Source: an uncultured Clostridium sp. (GTDB taxonomy: Bacteria > Bacillota > Clostridia > TANB77 > CAG-508). From it: DNA of 64,000 bases. Made by a program: the position numbers and the translations under genes. Location of the stretch: positions 45,580-109,579 of the forward strand of contig CANBHY010000007.1 of assembly GCA_947368535.1 (NCBI GenBank), given 5' to 3'. Below the pieces are notes generated by a model. That model was not told the DNA's origin, made no database searches, and saw nothing but the letters and a program-made list of their open reading frames with translations. Positions 24,051 to 32,523 of the stretch are shown here, in pieces; within the stretch, counting starts at the first letter, position 1; each line of letters starts with the position of its first letter.

Positions 24051-24080
24051 GACTTTTCTTTTTCAAAAAAAGTCAGTCTT
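24038..24080 (-). terminator. Intrinsic terminator at the 3' end of the AraC-family gene and the hydrolase array
   Basis: Hairpin tgactgactttt…aaagtcagtc includes the stop codon. A T-run follows on the minus strand. Confidence 0.6.
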
Positions 24081-24864
24081 CTATTGGAATTAAAAAATCT
24101 GTTACATTATCATGATAATACTCCAATTCTGGTAAATCTCTAAAATTATATTTTGAATTTGGTAAAAATTCTTCATAAAAAACTCTTGAATTTTCTTGTA
24201 TATCTTCTGGCTCTTGTGAATTTACTCGTAGCTGTATCCACTTACTTTTTGGTATTACAAACTCTTTCATATCATCTTTTTTATTATAATATAATACCCA
24301 ATATGCCTTTACATTCATTCTACAGCTATCTTGGTACTCTACTAATCCATAAGGTGCTTCTCCATATTTAGATGCAACTTCCTCATAAAATTTAGGTGCA
24401 ATATTTCCTATTTCTTCATTATTAGTTATTTTATATTTTCCATATAAAATTAATTCATCTTTTTCTATAATTGTATAGTTAATGTTTTTATTGCATTCAT
24501 ATTGTTCATTAAAATGTAATTTTGTATACAATTTTAATTTCTCTGGATTCTTTCTAACCTCACTTGGTTTTATTCCATGAAATTTTTCAAATGCTCTAGA
24601 AAAAGATGTCGCATTATTATATTGATATTTTACTGCAATATCTACTATTTTTTCTTCACCCAAATATAATTCTTGTCCTGCATTTGAAAGTCTTCTACTT
24701 CTAACATAATCAGCAAAAGAGCACCCAGTTATTAACGAAAACAATCTTTGAAAAGTATATTCATTCATACCTATCATTTTAGAAATAACTTTTAAATCAA
24801 TATTTTCTTCCAAATTTTTTTCTATATACTCTACTATTTTATTTAATTCAATGTATATATTCAC
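24073..24864 (-). CDS. AraC-family transcriptional regulator with C-terminal GyrI-like small-molecule-binding domain
   Basis: N-terminal HTH_AraC (…YTFQRLFSLITGCSFADYVRSRRL…). The C-terminal ~150 aa are GyrI/Rob-like effector-domain-sized. Overlaps the upstream HD gene. Confidence 0.75.
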   Translation of the reverse strand: MNIYIELNKIVEYIEKNLEENIDLKVISKMIGMNEYTFQRLFSLITGCSFADYVRSRRLSNAGQELYLGEEKIVDIAVKYQYNNATSFSRAFEKFHGIKPSEVRKNPEKLKLYTKLHFNEQYECNKNINYTIIEKDELILYGKYKITNNEEIGNIAPKFYEEVASKYGEAPYGLVEYQDSCRMNVKAYWVLYYNKKDDMKEFVIPKSKWIQLRVNSQEPEDIQENSRVFYEEFLPNSKYNFRDLPELEYYHDNVTDFLIPIED

Positions 24865-25516
24865 TTTTATCTCCTAATTTTAATTCTGTTGCTATAGCCT
24901 TTTCTGCTTCTACAAACTTTTCTTTATTTTCTAATAGTTCTTGCATTGTGTCTAAATAATCAATATATTTTTGGTCAGGATAATACATTTTAGCATATCC
25001 GCCTTTACCATACTTACTTGATAATTTTTTATATGAATATTCAATAACCTGTTGAACTGAAGGATTTTCACTACTATGCTTGTCTGCTTGATATAAAATA
25101 GATCTTTCTAACATATTTCTTACAGATGTTTCTCTATCAGCTGAAGATACTATTTTTCCATATATACTCCTTGCCTCGTATTCTAAACTTGCTCTATGAT
25201 CTACAATTGCTTCCGCAATTACATCTATTTGCTCATCAGTAAAAAATCTCCTCATATTTTGATCTTTTCTAAACATCTCACTTGACACCTCTTCATGTCT
25301 ATCTGGATCTTGTCTATATCCTATGTCATGATATGCTGCAATTGTATAAACCATATCCATATCAACATCCAAGTCAAAAGCCTTTATAATTTCAAAACAT
25401 CTTTCGATAACCGTTTTTATATGGTCTAATCCATGTCCACCCATGTTATTTATGTCATATTGCTCAAAAATATGTAATGCTATATATTCTTTTAATTCTT
25501 TATTAATTTCTTTCAT
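24848..25516 (-). CDS. HD-domain phosphohydrolase (YpgQ-like)
   Basis: HGLDHIKTV…AAYHDIGY…D motifs. 222 aa. Confidence 0.65.
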   Translation of the reverse strand: MKEINKELKEYIALHIFEQYDINNMGGHGLDHIKTVIERCFEIIKAFDLDVDMDMVYTIAAYHDIGYRQDPDRHEEVSSEMFRKDQNMRRFFTDEQIDVIAEAIVDHRASLEYEARSIYGKIVSSADRETSVRNMLERSILYQADKHSSENPSVQQVIEYSYKKLSSKYGKGGYAKMYYPDQKYIDYLDTMQELLENKEKFVEAEKAIATELKLGDKSEYIH

Positions 25517-25531
25517 ATTTAATTTTTTCCT

Positions 25532-26104
25532 TTACTTTTTCTCTTTTCTATACCAATCTGCAAACACTCTCATAGAATCTACTGATTCATATGGAATTCT
25601 ATTTTTTCTTTCTTCATCAGACATCTCAGCTAGTGTCTTTTCATATCCAAATGGCTTATACACATACCATAAATCAGACCATTTTTGATCAGTATCATTT
25701 CCTAAAATCTTTTCTGCTAAATTTCCTTCATGTTTTCCCATAAATTGATGCACTTCTTTGCCATCATAATATGATAAACATTCAGTAAATCTACATTTTC
25801 TGTTCTCTTTTCCTTCCATTAGTTTCAATATCCCATCAATACCTATTGTATCTAATGCAAAGTTTACAAAAGCCTTAGGAAAACCACCTAATTCATCTAT
25901 CCAAAATCCGCAGTCTAAAGAAATACAAGGTTTATTTACAAGTTTGTATGCCTCCATAACTTTATATTTTGATATATATTTAATATCATCACTTCTTGGT
26001 TCATCTAATTCATATTCGAATATCTTAAAATTAACTTCACCTAATTGCTTTTTAGCTGATGCTATTTTTCCTTTATTATGAGTTACAAATACAACATCTT
26101 CCAT
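25532..26104 (-). CDS. Ham1-like non-canonical NTP pyrophosphatase (divergent)
   Basis: VFVTHNKGKIASAKKQL N-terminus and SLDCGFWIDELGGFPKAF (cf. RdgB DSGLxVDALNGAPG). 190 aa. Confidence 0.45.
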   Translation of the reverse strand: MEDVVFVTHNKGKIASAKKQLGEVNFKIFEYELDEPRSDDIKYISKYKVMEAYKLVNKPCISLDCGFWIDELGGFPKAFVNFALDTIGIDGILKLMEGKENRKCRFTECLSYYDGKEVHQFMGKHEGNLAEKILGNDTDQKWSDLWYVYKPFGYEKTLAEMSDEERKNRIPYESVDSMRVFADWYRKEKK

Positions 26105-26121
26105 ATTTATTCCTCCGTATT

Positions 26122-30388: not shown

Positions 30389-30391
30389 TGT

Positions 30392-31048
30392 TTATTCTAT
30401 TTCTATTGATTCTCCATTTTCTAATATCTCATAATCAACTTCATTCTTTTCAAATACGCTTTTTACATATTCAAAATCTACTGGATAATTAGGACTATCA
30501 TTATGTACAGGAATTATTAGTTTAGCACCAGCTTCTTTAGCAAATAAAGCAACTTCAAAAGGTCCCATTACCACTCCATTATCTGAAACTGGAGCACATA
30601 AAATATCACATTTATATTCGTTTTGGAAACAGATTGTATCACTTGTAGCATATACTCTTGTTTCACCATCATCAACAATATATCCTATATTTTCAATAAC
30701 TTTACCACCATTTTTCATTGGAGGTAAATATCCATGTTCAGCATGTACTACTTCTATTTTCACATCTCCCACCGTAATAACATCATTTTCCTTAACAATA
30801 TTTATATTTAATTGTGGATATGTATTTTTTACTTCACTACTTGAATAAATTTTTATATTCTCTCCAAGTTTTTCTAACAATTCTACATTGCAGTGATCTG
30901 AGTGCTTATGAGTAACGCATATTGCATCTACTTTACTCCAAATATCAAAATATTCTTCTTTATATTTTAATACTCCTGGATCAATTAATATTTTCTTTCC
31001 CTTTGTTTCAATTAATAAACAAGACTCTGGATACTTAGTAATTTTCAT
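30392..31048 (-). CDS. MBL-fold metallo-hydrolase
   Basis: HxHxDH motif VTHKHSDHCN. 218 aa. Confidence 0.75.
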   Translation of the reverse strand: MKITKYPESCLLIETKGKKILIDPGVLKYKEEYFDIWSKVDAICVTHKHSDHCNVELLEKLGENIKIYSSSEVKNTYPQLNINIVKENDVITVGDVKIEVVHAEHGYLPPMKNGGKVIENIGYIVDDGETRVYATSDTICFQNEYKCDILCAPVSDNGVVMGPFEVALFAKEAGAKLIIPVHNDSPNYPVDFEYVKSVFEKNEVDYEILENGESIEIE

Positions 31049-31074
31049 TTTTCATCAACCTTTCTTTTATATAT

Positions 31075-31704
31075 TTAAATTTCATATTGCTTTAATTTTT
31101 CAATATATTTAGCAATACTTTCATCATTAATATCTTCTGGCATTATATCACAAAATTGCATAATTTGCTTTTCAATTCCTAAAGAACATTCAATTAAATG
31201 CTTAGCCTTTTCTTCATTAGACCATACAGATAAAGGTCTATCTTTATATCTAACTTTTGCATCTTCTAATCTCTCTTTTATACTAACAACACCATCAGGT
31301 GCAACTCTTTGATCACAGTATGCACAAATCTTTACTTCATATGAATCTGATTTATATGTTTCTTCATTTTTTCTAGATCTTTTTCCATCTAAAATTTCTA
31401 ATTCTTTTTCAGATAATCCTTCGATTTTTCCAATTTCTAAATTTAATTCATGTTCATTAGTACCGTATTTTTCAAAATACTTTCTTCTTGTTCTTTTAAA
31501 ATCTTCATCATCTACAAAATCTTCTGGAATTTTTAAAATATTTCCCATATCATGCAAAAGTGAAACTCTTAATATGGCACTTTTATCTAATTCATGCCCA
31601 TTCCAATTATCTAAAATTATATTGCTACAAGCTGCAACTCTAAGCATATGCATTTGTAAATTTTCTGGTAAGTAATATTTATTATAAATATCAATAATAT
31701 TCAT
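31075..31704 (-). CDS. HD-domain phosphohydrolase (YfbR-like 5'-nucleotidase fold)
   Basis: MHMLRVAACSNI…LLHDMGN…D pattern. 209 aa. Confidence 0.6.
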   Translation of the reverse strand: MNIIDIYNKYYLPENLQMHMLRVAACSNIILDNWNGHELDKSAILRVSLLHDMGNILKIPEDFVDDEDFKRTRRKYFEKYGTNEHELNLEIGKIEGLSEKELEILDGKRSRKNEETYKSDSYEVKICAYCDQRVAPDGVVSIKERLEDAKVRYKDRPLSVWSNEEKAKHLIECSLGIEKQIMQFCDIMPEDINDESIAKYIEKLKQYEI

Positions 31705-31716
31705 TTTTAATCCCTC

Positions 31717-32523
31717 TTATAAAATTATTTCTTCTAAATCATTTGGAACATAAACATTCCCATCAAAATTTTCTTTTGCTTCTTTAGTATAAACTTCTTT
31801 CCTTTTTTCACCTAAATTTTCTTGTGTGTGCCATAACACTAAATTTTTGATATTTAAACTTTTAGCTTTAATACTTGCTGATTTAACAGTATCATGATTT
31901 TTCTCTCTTGGTTTATATTTTTCTGATTCTGTTTCTAAACAAAATGATTCATGCAATAAATAATCTGAATTTCTTGCATCTTCATACAAATTTTCATATA
32001 ATGGTTCATCTCCTGCAAATACAAGACTTTTTCCGTTATTTAAAATTGTTTTGAATCCATATTGTTTATCACTTTTAGAAATAATATCTAAAAACTCTAA
32101 TTCATAATCTAAAACTTTAACTTTTTCATGATCATTTACTATATTAATAAAAATTCTTTTATCTATATAAATTTGTTGTTCTTTTCTAAGCAAAGTATGA
32201 ATTTGGTCTCTTATAATTCCAGCAACTTCATCATGACAATATATATTTAAAGTTCCTTCATACGTTCCTTTTCTCATTGCCAAATCTACAAATCTATATA
32301 TCCAAAGCATTCCAAATAAATGATCTATATGTTTATGAGAAATAAATATATTATGAATTTTTTTAATATCAACATTCGCTCTGCCAAGTTGTTTAAGTAT
32401 TCCATTTCCACCACCAGTATCAACTAATAGATACTCTCCTTTGCTATCTTCTAGTACAAAACAAGTGTTAAAATTTTCAACTACACTTGCTGTTCCAGTT
32501 CCTAAAACTATAATTTTTTCCAT
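31717..32523 (-). CDS. MBL-fold metallo-hydrolase (RNase Z / PhnP-like)
   Basis: ISHKHIDHLFG motif. 268 aa. Confidence 0.7.
   Translation of the reverse strand: MEKIIVLGTGTASVVENFNTCFVLEDSKGEYLLVDTGGGNGILKQLGRANVDIKKIHNIFISHKHIDHLFGMLWIYRFVDLAMRKGTYEGTLNIYCHDEVAGIIRDQIHTLLRKEQQIYIDKRIFINIVNDHEKVKVLDYELEFLDIISKSDKQYGFKTILNNGKSLVFAGDEPLYENLYEDARNSDYLLHESFCLETESEKYKPREKNHDTVKSASIKAKSLNIKNLVLWHTQENLGEKRKEVYTKEAKENFDGNVYVPNDLEEIIL

Follow-up and report, generated by a model that had tools for sequence, protein, structure and literature searches.

Why should a bacterium keep a dozen different phosphohydrolase genes in a single row? We address this question for a 64,000-nt stretch of contig CANBHY010000007.1 (assembly GCA_947368535.1, an uncultured Clostridium sp.), the whole of which we call the window. 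Its minus strand carries, from position 35666 to 24073, a predicted transcription unit of 18 genes (~11.6 kb) in which 12 consecutive genes encode phosphohydrolases from seven folds: two HD proteins, a Ham1 protein, two HAD proteins, three Nudix proteins, a metallophosphoesterase, two proteins of the metallo-beta-lactamase (MBL) fold and a TIM barrel. We lean, by a little, towards reading this array as a super-operon, expressed constitutively, of cytosolic 'house-cleaning' enzymes that serve nucleotide-pool sanitation and related damage control. Rather than a fixed multi-component system, we see in it the extreme form, particular to one species, of a tendency found across the lineage.

An unbroken array of 18 co-directional genes

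Families were called from Pfam and NCBIfam scans of open reading frames (ORFs) of the window. The unit opens with five genes (35666 to 32541), which are followed by the hydrolase genes (MBL_A to HD_B, 32523 to 24848) and, after HD_B, by a gene with AraC-type helix-turn-helix (HTH) and GyrI-like domains that closes the unit. The predicted features, in the order of transcription, are:

35762..35789, minus strand: terminator-like hairpin, 12-pair stem and T tract, which ends the upstream operon of an extracytoplasmic function (ECF) sigma factor and an anti-sigma factor (DUF4179)
35708..35736, minus strand: promoter-like site, TTGAGA-17 nt-TATAAT with extended -10 TG, 11 of 12 consensus matches; predicted start of the unit
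35028..35666, minus strand: class I S-adenosylmethionine (SAM)-dependent methyltransferase, 212 residues, first gene (Pfam Methyltransf_11, 68 bits)
34533..35015, minus strand: GNAT acetyltransferase, 160 residues (Pfam Acetyltransf_1, 58.7 bits)
34193..34558, minus strand: small cupin protein, 117-121 residues, 117 in the calls from metagenome-assembled genomes (MAGs) (weak Cupin_2/MPI_cupin match, ~25 bits, just under the cutoff)
33100..34185, minus strand: radical SAM enzyme with a PqqE/SPASM-like C-terminal half, 359-361 residues (Pfam Radical_SAM, 72 bits; NCBIfam matches all far under their cutoffs)
32541..33080, minus strand: peptide deformylase (def), 179 residues (Pfam, 160 bits; NF001159, 153.8 bits against a cutoff of 125)
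31717..32523, minus strand: MBL_A, arm-less MBL-fold phosphodiesterase of the RNase Z/ElaC/YhfI type, 268 residues (HKHIDH motif; structure model and profiles)
31075..31704, minus strand: HD_A, divergent HD-superfamily protein, 209 residues (Pfam HD, 22.2 bits against a cutoff of 22)
30392..31048, minus strand: MBL_B, UPF0173-type MBL-fold metal hydrolase, 218 residues (Lactamase_B_3, 88 bits; HKHSDH motif)
29804..30388, minus strand: NT5C-like HAD phosphatase, likely start ATG 30376 giving 190 residues (HAD matches under the Pfam thresholds)
29335..29802, minus strand: Nudix hydrolase NudA, 155 residues (Pfam NUDIX, 60.9 bits; canonical Nudix box)
28894..29313, minus strand: Nudix hydrolase NudB, 139 residues, weakly MutT-like (Pfam NUDIX, 77 bits; TIGR00586, 56 bits against a cutoff of 98)
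28108..28872, minus strand: metallophosphoesterase, 254 residues (Metallophos_2, 63 bits; related to PDB 3qfm)
27648..28106, minus strand: Nudix hydrolase NudC, 150-152 residues (Pfam NUDIX, 77.5 bits; canonical Nudix box)
26851..27648, minus strand: Xylose-isomerase-like/AP_endonuc_2 TIM barrel, 265 residues (Pfam, 94 bits)
26122..26838, minus strand: HAD-IA phosphatase, YjjG-like nucleotidase, 238 residues (HAD_2, 71.6 bits)
25532..26104, minus strand: Ham1/RdgB-family pyrophosphatase for non-canonical purine nucleoside triphosphates (NTPs), 190 residues (Pfam Ham1p_like, 78 bits)
24848..25516, minus strand: HD_B, HD-domain phosphohydrolase, 222 residues (Pfam HD, 34.6 bits)
24073..24864, minus strand: AraC-type HTH and GyrI-like regulator, 263 residues, last gene (HTH_18, 69.2 bits; GyrI-like, 37.2 bits)
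24047..24078, minus strand: terminator-like hairpin, 14 pairs and T tract, overlapping the stop of the AraC gene; the unit is predicted to end here

The spacing lies between -26 and +26 nt at all 17 junctions of the unit, and every gene is preceded by its own Shine-Dalgarno-like motif (for the methyltransferase gene, GGAGA 7 nt ahead of the ATG at 35666). Outside the array, 17 of the 45 junctions in the window are equally tight and the longest other run is 4 genes; the chance expectation of an unbroken run of 17 such junctions is (17/45)^17 = 6.5e-8. An earlier reading of this DNA, made from the letters alone and referred to below as the original prediction, had described twelve consecutive co-directional hydrolase genes in a tight array that runs upstream through def, the radical SAM enzyme, the cupin and the GNAT to the methyltransferase at 35666. 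Order, strand and families are confirmed by the Pfam and NCBIfam scans, the stacking is far beyond chance, and the junction lengths bear out the upstream extension.

The promoter-like site (35736-35708) lies directly after the hairpin that closes the sigma/anti-sigma operon, and no further minus-strand terminator-like site was found between 35762 and 24078. Promoter-like matches are overall no commoner than in shuffled sequence, so that internal promoter matches carry no weight. Because the promoter-like and terminator-like sites bracket these 18 genes, with none between, we predict that they form one unit. Constitutive expression is argued from the presence of a bona fide def gene in the same unit.

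Three other origins of such a run were considered and rejected. A recent tandem duplication is ruled out by the divergence of the paralogues: Nudix pairs within the array are 23-31% identical by BLAST, and no significant BLAST match was found between the two HD, the two MBL, the two HAD or the two Ham1 proteins (the second Ham1 gene lies downstream of the unit, see below). The paralogues are thus ancient, and the array was therefore assembled from distinct genes. A foreign island does not fit either. The G+C content of the array equals that of its flanks, with no anomaly or compositional break (window ~27%), and the flanks are the core chromosome of a spore-forming Clostridia bacterium, with SpoIVA, a GerA/GerB/GerC operon, a PASTA kinase (PrkC) and a block behind a tetrahydrofolate (THF) riboswitch. 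Integrons and other gene-cassette arrays are likewise long runs of small, co-directional, miscellaneous genes whose content varies between species. Unlike in those arrays, every junction here looks like an ordinary operon junction: gaps of at most 26 nt are too short for attC sites, there is no repeat family, and no integrase was seen among the scanned neighbours.

Intact catalytic motifs and a proposed division of labour

The catalytic motifs are intact in both MBL proteins (HxHxDH), in the HD proteins (H..HD..D) and in the HAD (DxDxV/S/K/DD). The Nudix box GX5EX7REUXEEXGU is exact in NudA and NudC and differs once in NudB, where the last Gly is Asp. All three proteins fall well within the Nudix family (PF00293; 77.5, 77.0 and 60.9 bits against a cutoff of 21.1), as the Ham1 protein does within the Ham1/RdgB/ITPase family (PF01725; 78.1 bits against 22.5). 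The metallophosphoesterase matches PDB 3qfm (phmmer E 2e-15), which we take to be the S. pneumoniae Ap4A/ATP/phosphodiester hydrolase SapH. The PDB matches of MBL_B are the UPF0173 proteins 7e3v, TM_1162 and Igni_1254, and its match to PRK00685 (61.7 bits) stays under the cutoff; by these matches MBL_B is a member of the uncharacterised UPF0173 group. For HD_B the PDB matches are weak (5dqv, E 0.011; YedJ, 3gw7). No obvious N-terminal hydrophobic signal was seen in the translations that were inspected. In the NCBI records of the same proteins ('MAG: Clostridia bacterium', HFJ44_03480 to 03525), Ham1 and HD_A are called hypothetical.

Two of the family labels in the original prediction needed a closer look. 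The name NT5C-like for the mid-array HAD protein is not reached by Pfam, in which the window protein has no match to the NT5C family PF06941 at E<0.01, and a profile search of the PDB found no relative. Profile comparison lends it support: the family profile (alignment A1, in which the HAD motifs are invariant) aligns with a PF06941-labelled gene at an hhalign probability of 99.1% (E 8e-19, 26% identity). Several homologues carry PF06941 in precomputed tables, and membership of the NT5C family is putative. The TIM barrel had been called endonuclease-IV-like, which we reject: it scores 18.9 bits against the Nfo model TIGR00587 (cutoff 129.65), and no endonuclease IV is found among its PDB relatives. 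Its best matches are CbiR (45.6 bits, under the cutoff) and, in the PDB, MJ1311 and D-tagatose 3-epimerase; the assignment to the AP_endonuc_2 superfamily alone holds (94 bits), and NCBI names the protein 'sugar phosphate isomerase/epimerase'.

The claim that the families are of the kind used in nucleotide-pool sanitation is borne out, and the theme recurs around homologues in other species (next section). On this basis we propose two tiers of action. In the first, NTP pyrophosphatases would turn non-canonical or excess (d)NTPs into monophosphates, the candidates being Ham1 (for ITP, XTP and dITP), the three diverged Nudix proteins and the HD proteins. In the second, nucleotidases (the YjjG-like and NT5C-like HAD proteins) would turn the monophosphates into nucleosides and so block their re-phosphorylation. 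Phosphodiesterases, for which the metallophosphoesterase, the RNase Z/YhfI-like MBL protein, the UPF0173 MBL protein and perhaps the TIM barrel are candidates, would clear by-products with diester bonds, for example dinucleoside polyphosphates, nucleotides in cyclic or 2',3'-cyclic form, and fragments of RNA. We infer this two-tier logic, like the substrates and the co-transcription on which it would depend, from the families, motifs and layout described above.

Subsets of the array recur, reshuffled, in other gut Clostridia

With the mid-array NT5C-like HAD as anchor (2278 homologues), a scan of one genome per GTDB species gave 80 loci, all from uncultured gut Clostridia and with 44-67% identity; the species of the window is not among them. 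Parts of the array are found there in other orders. One locus (L030) reads Ham1, NT5C-like, def, MBL_B, Nudix, Nudix and HD_A, with unrelated genes between some of them; another (L014) has HD_A and NT5C-like, with MBL_B, MBL_A and the TIM barrel ~8 kb further on; and a third (L086) has NT5C-like, GNAT, TIM barrel and methyltransferase over ~6 kb. The genes for def, the radical SAM enzyme and the NT5C-like protein are adjacent in L073 and lie within 5 kb in L067, and in both loci the radical SAM gene adjoins def as it does here. Related enzymes that are not part of our array join in elsewhere: L011 carries uracil phosphoribosyltransferase, HAD, Ham1, MazG-like, metallophosphoesterase, NT5C-like and HD_A genes, L013 carries YfbR-type HD, NT5C-like, Nudix, NTPase_I-T, Ppx-GppA, HD_4 and Ham1 genes, and in L097 Ham1 adjoins MBL_A, with uracil-DNA glycosylase and Nudix genes nearby.

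This clustering around the anchor is local. Around the NT5C-like gene in ~40 non-redundant loci, taken at species level, the nearest two ORFs to either side (150 ORFs) most commonly matched the Pfam families NUDIX (9), NTPase_I-T (ITPase/XTPase, 5), HAD (5) and GNAT (5), and further metallophosphoesterase, Ham1 and His_Phos_1 (3 each). Among 112 ORFs at least 7 genes away from the anchor, Nudix, NTPase_I-T, HAD, metallophosphoesterase and Ham1 each occurred fewer than two times. Fisher p values for the enrichment near the anchor range from 3e-7 to 1.4e-3, a range set by unseen singletons.

Another gut Clostridia species (L098; GCA_011262095.1, 1-11632) has a different array of 17 co-directional genes with an overlapping theme: SDR, HAD, HD, a kinase-like AAA_18 protein, two GNATs, an M20 peptidase and two Nudix proteins, then a racemase, Ham1, Ser_hydrolase, an IspD-like protein, a phosphoribosyltransferase, MBL_A and an inositol phosphatase. 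From these comparisons the theme is lineage-wide and the particular array species-specific. Scattering of the genes in related genomes had been named in the original prediction as a sign of chance juxtaposition. The outcome is divided: the exact array occurs in one species only and is reshuffled elsewhere, yet the genes stay significantly associated.

Within the species, the whole 12.2-kb region recurs with 99.5-100% identity in ten long contigs, drawn from metagenomes and MAGs of the mouse gut, and the species is a common one, since the Ham1 protein of the array occurs in 1062 data blocks.

A shared pathway or a drawer of small enzymes?

Several observations weigh against a common function in nucleotide sanitation. 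The specific equivalog cutoffs of NCBIfam are missed by all 12 hydrolases: the three Nudix proteins miss those of MutT, the Ham1 protein misses TIGR00042 (87.5 bits against 145) and NF011396 (116 against 203), and the YjjG-like protein (26122-26838) misses TIGR02254 in a full-length alignment (135.1 bits against 159.9). The substrates of all twelve enzymes are putative, and that the 18 genes form a single operon is a prediction. The TIM barrel may be a sugar-phosphate isomerase. The array itself is present in none of the 80 relative loci. At least one other array homologue lies within 10 kb of the anchor in 17 of 44 non-redundant loci, at least two in 9 and at least three in 4, the maximum being six. 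The first five genes of our unit are not hydrolases, and the arrays of relatives also hold GNATs, peptidases, a racemase, a glyoxalase and dehydrogenases; the common denominator may be small soluble housekeeping enzymes, not nucleotides. Some strains have also lost parts of single genes: a 212-bp deletion lies inside the methyltransferase gene (35080-35291) in strains L001 and L008, and one of ~217 bp inside the metallophosphoesterase gene (28265-28481) in strain L010. Since these deletions occur, single members appear to be dispensable, which suggests redundancy.

HD_A adds a further point on the same side. The 120 best of its 1260 matches are from gut Clostridia (77-98% identity), and residues H19, H51-D52 and D131 are invariant. 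A PDB search found no solved relative; one of five AlphaFold2 (AF2) models is confident (predicted local distance difference test score, pLDDT, of 78.6), and its Foldseek matches, with PgpH and HD-GYP on top, have E values of at least 0.05. We would assign the protein no further than to the HD superfamily. An exhaustive search showed that HD_A homologues are often the C-terminal domain of proteins of 500-1540 residues with PEP-utilizer and PPDK_N dikinase modules, and these fusions point to a different role for HD_A.

Among these fusion proteins, one has in addition an N-terminal PNP_UDP_1 domain, and in another the HD_A-like domain stands in tandem with a YfbR-like HD domain. The window also encodes a stand-alone protein of 800 residues with PPDK_N and PEP-utilizers domains (16126-18528, minus strand), in a unit with an XRE-type HTH gene and an ORF of 137 residues. 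Together with HD_A it may form a functional pairing of a dikinase and an HD phosphatase.

Could the genes then share no pathway at all? The array would in that case be a by-product of genome organisation, a drawer of small non-essential soluble enzymes behind a shared promoter, and the hydrolase run an extreme draw in streamlined, strongly strand-biased gut Clostridia. The strand bias is certainly there (58 of the 63 called genes of the window lie on the minus strand, and the GC skew is strongly negative throughout), and the mixture of many unrelated small enzymes in relatives, the reshuffling of gene order and content between species, the decay of single genes in some strains, and the opening of the unit with methyltransferase, GNAT, cupin, radical SAM and def genes are all what such a drawer would look like. 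Random sampling of a proteome, however, cannot give twelve consecutive phosphohydrolases; among ~30 further ORFs of the window scanned with Pfam there is one other such gene only, the second Ham1. Moreover, the single-copy house-cleaning families NTPase_I-T and Ham1 are enriched beside the NT5C-like gene and not further off. We regard the drawer as possible, though not as probable.

The AraC/GyrI gene is unlikely to be a dedicated regulator

According to the original prediction the array stands under an AraC regulator with a GyrI-like ligand-binding domain. The position of the gene does not fit this well, as it is the last cistron, at the 3' end. It overlaps HD_B by 17 nt and has the terminator directly behind it, and for these reasons it is probably part of the array transcript; its GTG start is preceded by AGGAG. 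The protein has the Rob-type architecture (HTH_18 plus GyrI-like), which it shares with regulators of Rob/SoxS/MarA-type regulons. Unlike these, it stays far below the RobA equivalog model (68 bits against a cutoff of 380), is encoded by a last cistron and is tied by synteny to other genes. An AraC/GyrI homologue (66% identity) was found in one relative locus only (L035), where it follows a gene for a major facilitator superfamily (MFS) transporter and has behind it, just as in the window, the genes for the TrwB/TraG-like ATPase and the Cys-rich protein, with NT5C-like and Nudix genes 8 kb away; the other 43 non-redundant loci have none. By this arrangement the gene is syntenic with the downstream block and not with the hydrolases.

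These data bear on the idea of a ligand-inducible regulon against xenobiotics or stress, in which the GyrI-like domain would sense a nucleoside analogue or a gut antibiotic and the AraC protein would activate the promoter of the unit, in the manner of Rob, SoxS or MarA. The domain architecture is the right one for this, and the overlap with the last hydrolase gene would bring the regulator into the transcript. On the other hand, a near-consensus promoter with an extended -10 normally needs no activator, and both the synteny in L035, after a transporter gene and away from the hydrolases, and the absence of homologues from the 43 other loci speak against it. An inducible regulon is in our judgement improbable, and dedicated control of the array by the AraC/GyrI protein is unlikely, on comparative evidence that is thin. 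At most the protein would feed back on the unit.

The block downstream of the AraC/GyrI gene has features of its own. An AT-rich inverted repeat (24006-24044), perfect over 18 nt and with a loop of 3 nt, stands close behind the terminator of the unit. It is followed by two ORFs of 304 residues (DUF87/HerA-like) and 236 residues, 262 nt apart (21992-23879, minus strand), which together correspond to one intact TrwB/TraG-like ATPase of 627 residues in L035 (2575-4458). The ATPase gene is probably split in the species of the window, as a pseudogene: the same two ORFs are called in 10 of 10 conspecific contigs, with the DNA compared over the first 80 bases of the region only. Next come a gene for a conserved Cys-rich protein of 242 residues (21271-21999) and, ~2.9 kb downstream of the end of the operon, the second, highly diverged Ham1-family gene (199 residues, 20589-21188, minus strand), homologues of which also lie near the NT5C-like gene in other species.

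MBL_A and the clearance of nucleotide signals

If any member of the array pointed to immune signalling it would be MBL_A, which shares its HxHxDH motif and fold with the class II MBL phosphodiesterases (RNase Z/ElaC, B. subtilis YhfI and phage Apyc1). Its AF2 model (pLDDT 95.6) has 8gyg, 1zkp, 2cbn, 1y44 and the YhfI structures 6kns and 6knt as top Foldseek matches. Against the class II clade as a whole it reaches template modelling (TM) scores of 0.73-0.87, and its closest superpositions are with RNase Z/ElaC-clade proteins of the arm-less kind, namely BA1088, ZipD, RNase Z and YhfI (TM 0.80/0.87). The Apyc1 structures come further down, the best at rank 35, and the profile search agrees; in the model, therefore, MBL_A appears closer to RNase Z, YhfI and the ElaC homologues than to Apyc1. 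Unlike RNase Z, it is without the ~40 residues at the position of the flexible tRNA-binding arm, and it stays under the tRNase Z model TIGR02651 (89.4 bits against 293, the match being split in two stretches) as it does under the Apyc1 model PF23023.1 (16.3 bits against 50, in a match limited to the N-terminal 70 residues). We treat it as lying outside the Apyc1 family. The Pfam versions disagree here, as the precomputed tables (PF23023.2) list Anti-Pycsar_Apyc1 for the whole MBL_A family. A homologue of 398 residues (P0560, 60% identity) carries a C-terminal Nudix domain; it is a single example, from one 45-kb contig.

Nudix, HD and metallophosphoesterase families include signal-degrading enzymes. 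The array might accordingly be pictured as a host clearing station for nucleotide signals and toxic nucleotides, that is, for cyclic (oligo)nucleotides, derivatives of NAD or ADP-ribose (ADPR), or modified dNTPs that come from defence systems, toxins or phages. The place of MBL_A in the clade that holds Apyc1 and YhfI is in keeping with this, as is the family label in the precomputed tables. YhfI and related bacterial MBL phosphodiesterases are reported to prefer cAMP and cGMP, and bacterial Apyc1-like enzymes that cleave cyclic nucleoside monophosphates (cNMPs) exist (PMC9117128).

The remaining evidence goes the other way. Besides the low PF23023.1 score and the rank of the Apyc1 structures well under the RNase Z, YhfI and ElaC homologues, a PADLOC-DB 2.0 scan of 5 of the 12 hydrolases (both MBL proteins, both HD proteins and the metallophosphoesterase) and of neighbouring genes found no defence component; for the five hydrolases it returned nothing except a 15-bit RTasMBL match of MBL_B. 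Its other matches were pVip on the N-terminal core of the radical SAM enzyme and weak mad8/HerA matches on the broken ATPase gene. A viperin-like enzyme is ruled out, as the generic CxxxCxxC core alone matches. No cyclase or effector gene was seen among the scanned ORFs, ~5 kb on either side, and the setting is core chromosome with a G+C content equal to that of the flanks. The suggestion in the original prediction that the array degrades second messengers or acts in phage defence has in this way gained no positive evidence, and we consider a clearing station very unlikely.

The same low standing goes to a more elaborate version. In it, the genes would form a dedicated module for 'nucleotide hygiene' under common control, whose products work jointly, perhaps in a complex or relay, to clear nucleotide-derived immune signals or toxic nucleotides, with the GyrI-like domain as sensor; this we find hard to credit. 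Equally doubtful are the targets that it would have, such as cNMPs, dinucleoside polyphosphates (NpnN), derivatives of ADPR, and (d)NTPs of phage, toxin or dietary origin that are modified or chain-terminating. If it were true, the module would be a host-encoded counterpart of the anti-defence nucleases of phages.

The upstream genes and an unlikely biosynthetic cluster

The genes ahead of the hydrolases raise one more possibility, namely that the unit makes or tailors a natural product, either a peptide or one derived from a nucleoside. The radical SAM enzyme with its SPASM-like half, the methyltransferase, the GNAT and the cupin would build the product, and the phosphatases would serve the pathway or self-resistance. 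All four types are indeed present in the unit, and Nudix and HAD enzymes occur in nucleoside antibiotic clusters (PMC6112128). However, genes for a precursor peptide, a transporter, a scaffold-forming enzyme or immunity were not seen, the tailoring-type genes reassort independently in relatives, and twelve hydrolases from seven folds are not a pathway-like composition. This is the explanation to which we give the least credence, and it seems extremely unlikely.

Relation to known systems

The array can be set beside what is known of such enzymes. The concept of house-cleaning NTP pyrophosphatases and nucleotidases reportedly goes back to Galperin et al. (Mol Microbiol, 2006). The enzymes of this group (Ham1/RdgB/ITPA, MutT-type Nudix, MazG, YjjG, YfbR and NT5C) belong to the same superfamilies as those of the array and have the same catalytic motifs, and the chemistry would be the same, from NTP to NMP plus PPi and then from NMP to nucleoside. 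In model organisms their genes are scattered, single or paired, whereas here twelve stand in one predicted unit. In agreement with the original prediction, which did not recognise the locus as a described system, no published description of a multi-hydrolase house-cleaning operon was found in the literature searched.

The way in which small, low-GC gut Clostridia keep such genes in rearranging co-directional arrays recalls the uber-operon, a term for conserved neighbourhoods that rearrange, a concept that reportedly goes back to Lathe, Snel and Bork (2000). There, likewise, the same families are kept across species while order and membership change. The classic uber-operons consist of ribosome, translation or flagellar genes; those gathered here encode enzymes of damage control, each of them dispensable by itself, and the association is partial (17 of 44 loci).

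The components of the array all come from well-known superfamilies and the house-cleaning concept is established; the array reveals neither a new mechanism nor a new class of system. It stands out by how far the genes are consolidated, and by their recurrence in shuffled form among uncultured gut bacteria of one lineage. As a rule, house-cleaning enzymes are studied singly because their genes are scattered; one predicted transcript with twelve of them offers a test bed for how the families divide the space of non-canonical nucleotide substrates, and for whether the pyrophosphatase and nucleotidase steps couple. The neighbourhood also provides guilt-by-association leads for families of gut Clostridia without annotation (HD_A, the NT5C-like HAD, the UPF0173 MBL protein and the TIM barrel), and rearranging arrays in an abundant uncultured gut lineage are useful for the annotation of metagenomes.

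Other features of the window

Upstream of the unit, a THF riboswitch (57 bits; 41319-41413, minus strand) precedes the genes at 38055-41245, which encode a folate S-component of the energy-coupling factor type, a Mur-ligase/FolC-like protein, an ABC ATPase and a CbiQ-type T-component; these form a probable operon for folate uptake and polyglutamylation. Downstream, a gene at 8598-14414 (minus strand) encodes a protein of 1938 residues that has one NPCBM and two F5/8 type C (discoidin) domains; it probably binds glycans, either at the cell surface or after secretion. Finally, at 45116-50642 SpoIVA is encoded on the minus strand and a germinant-receptor operon (GerA, spore permease, GerAC) on the plus strand. 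Plus-strand blocks such as this operon are few in the window, and the GC skew flattens locally where it lies.

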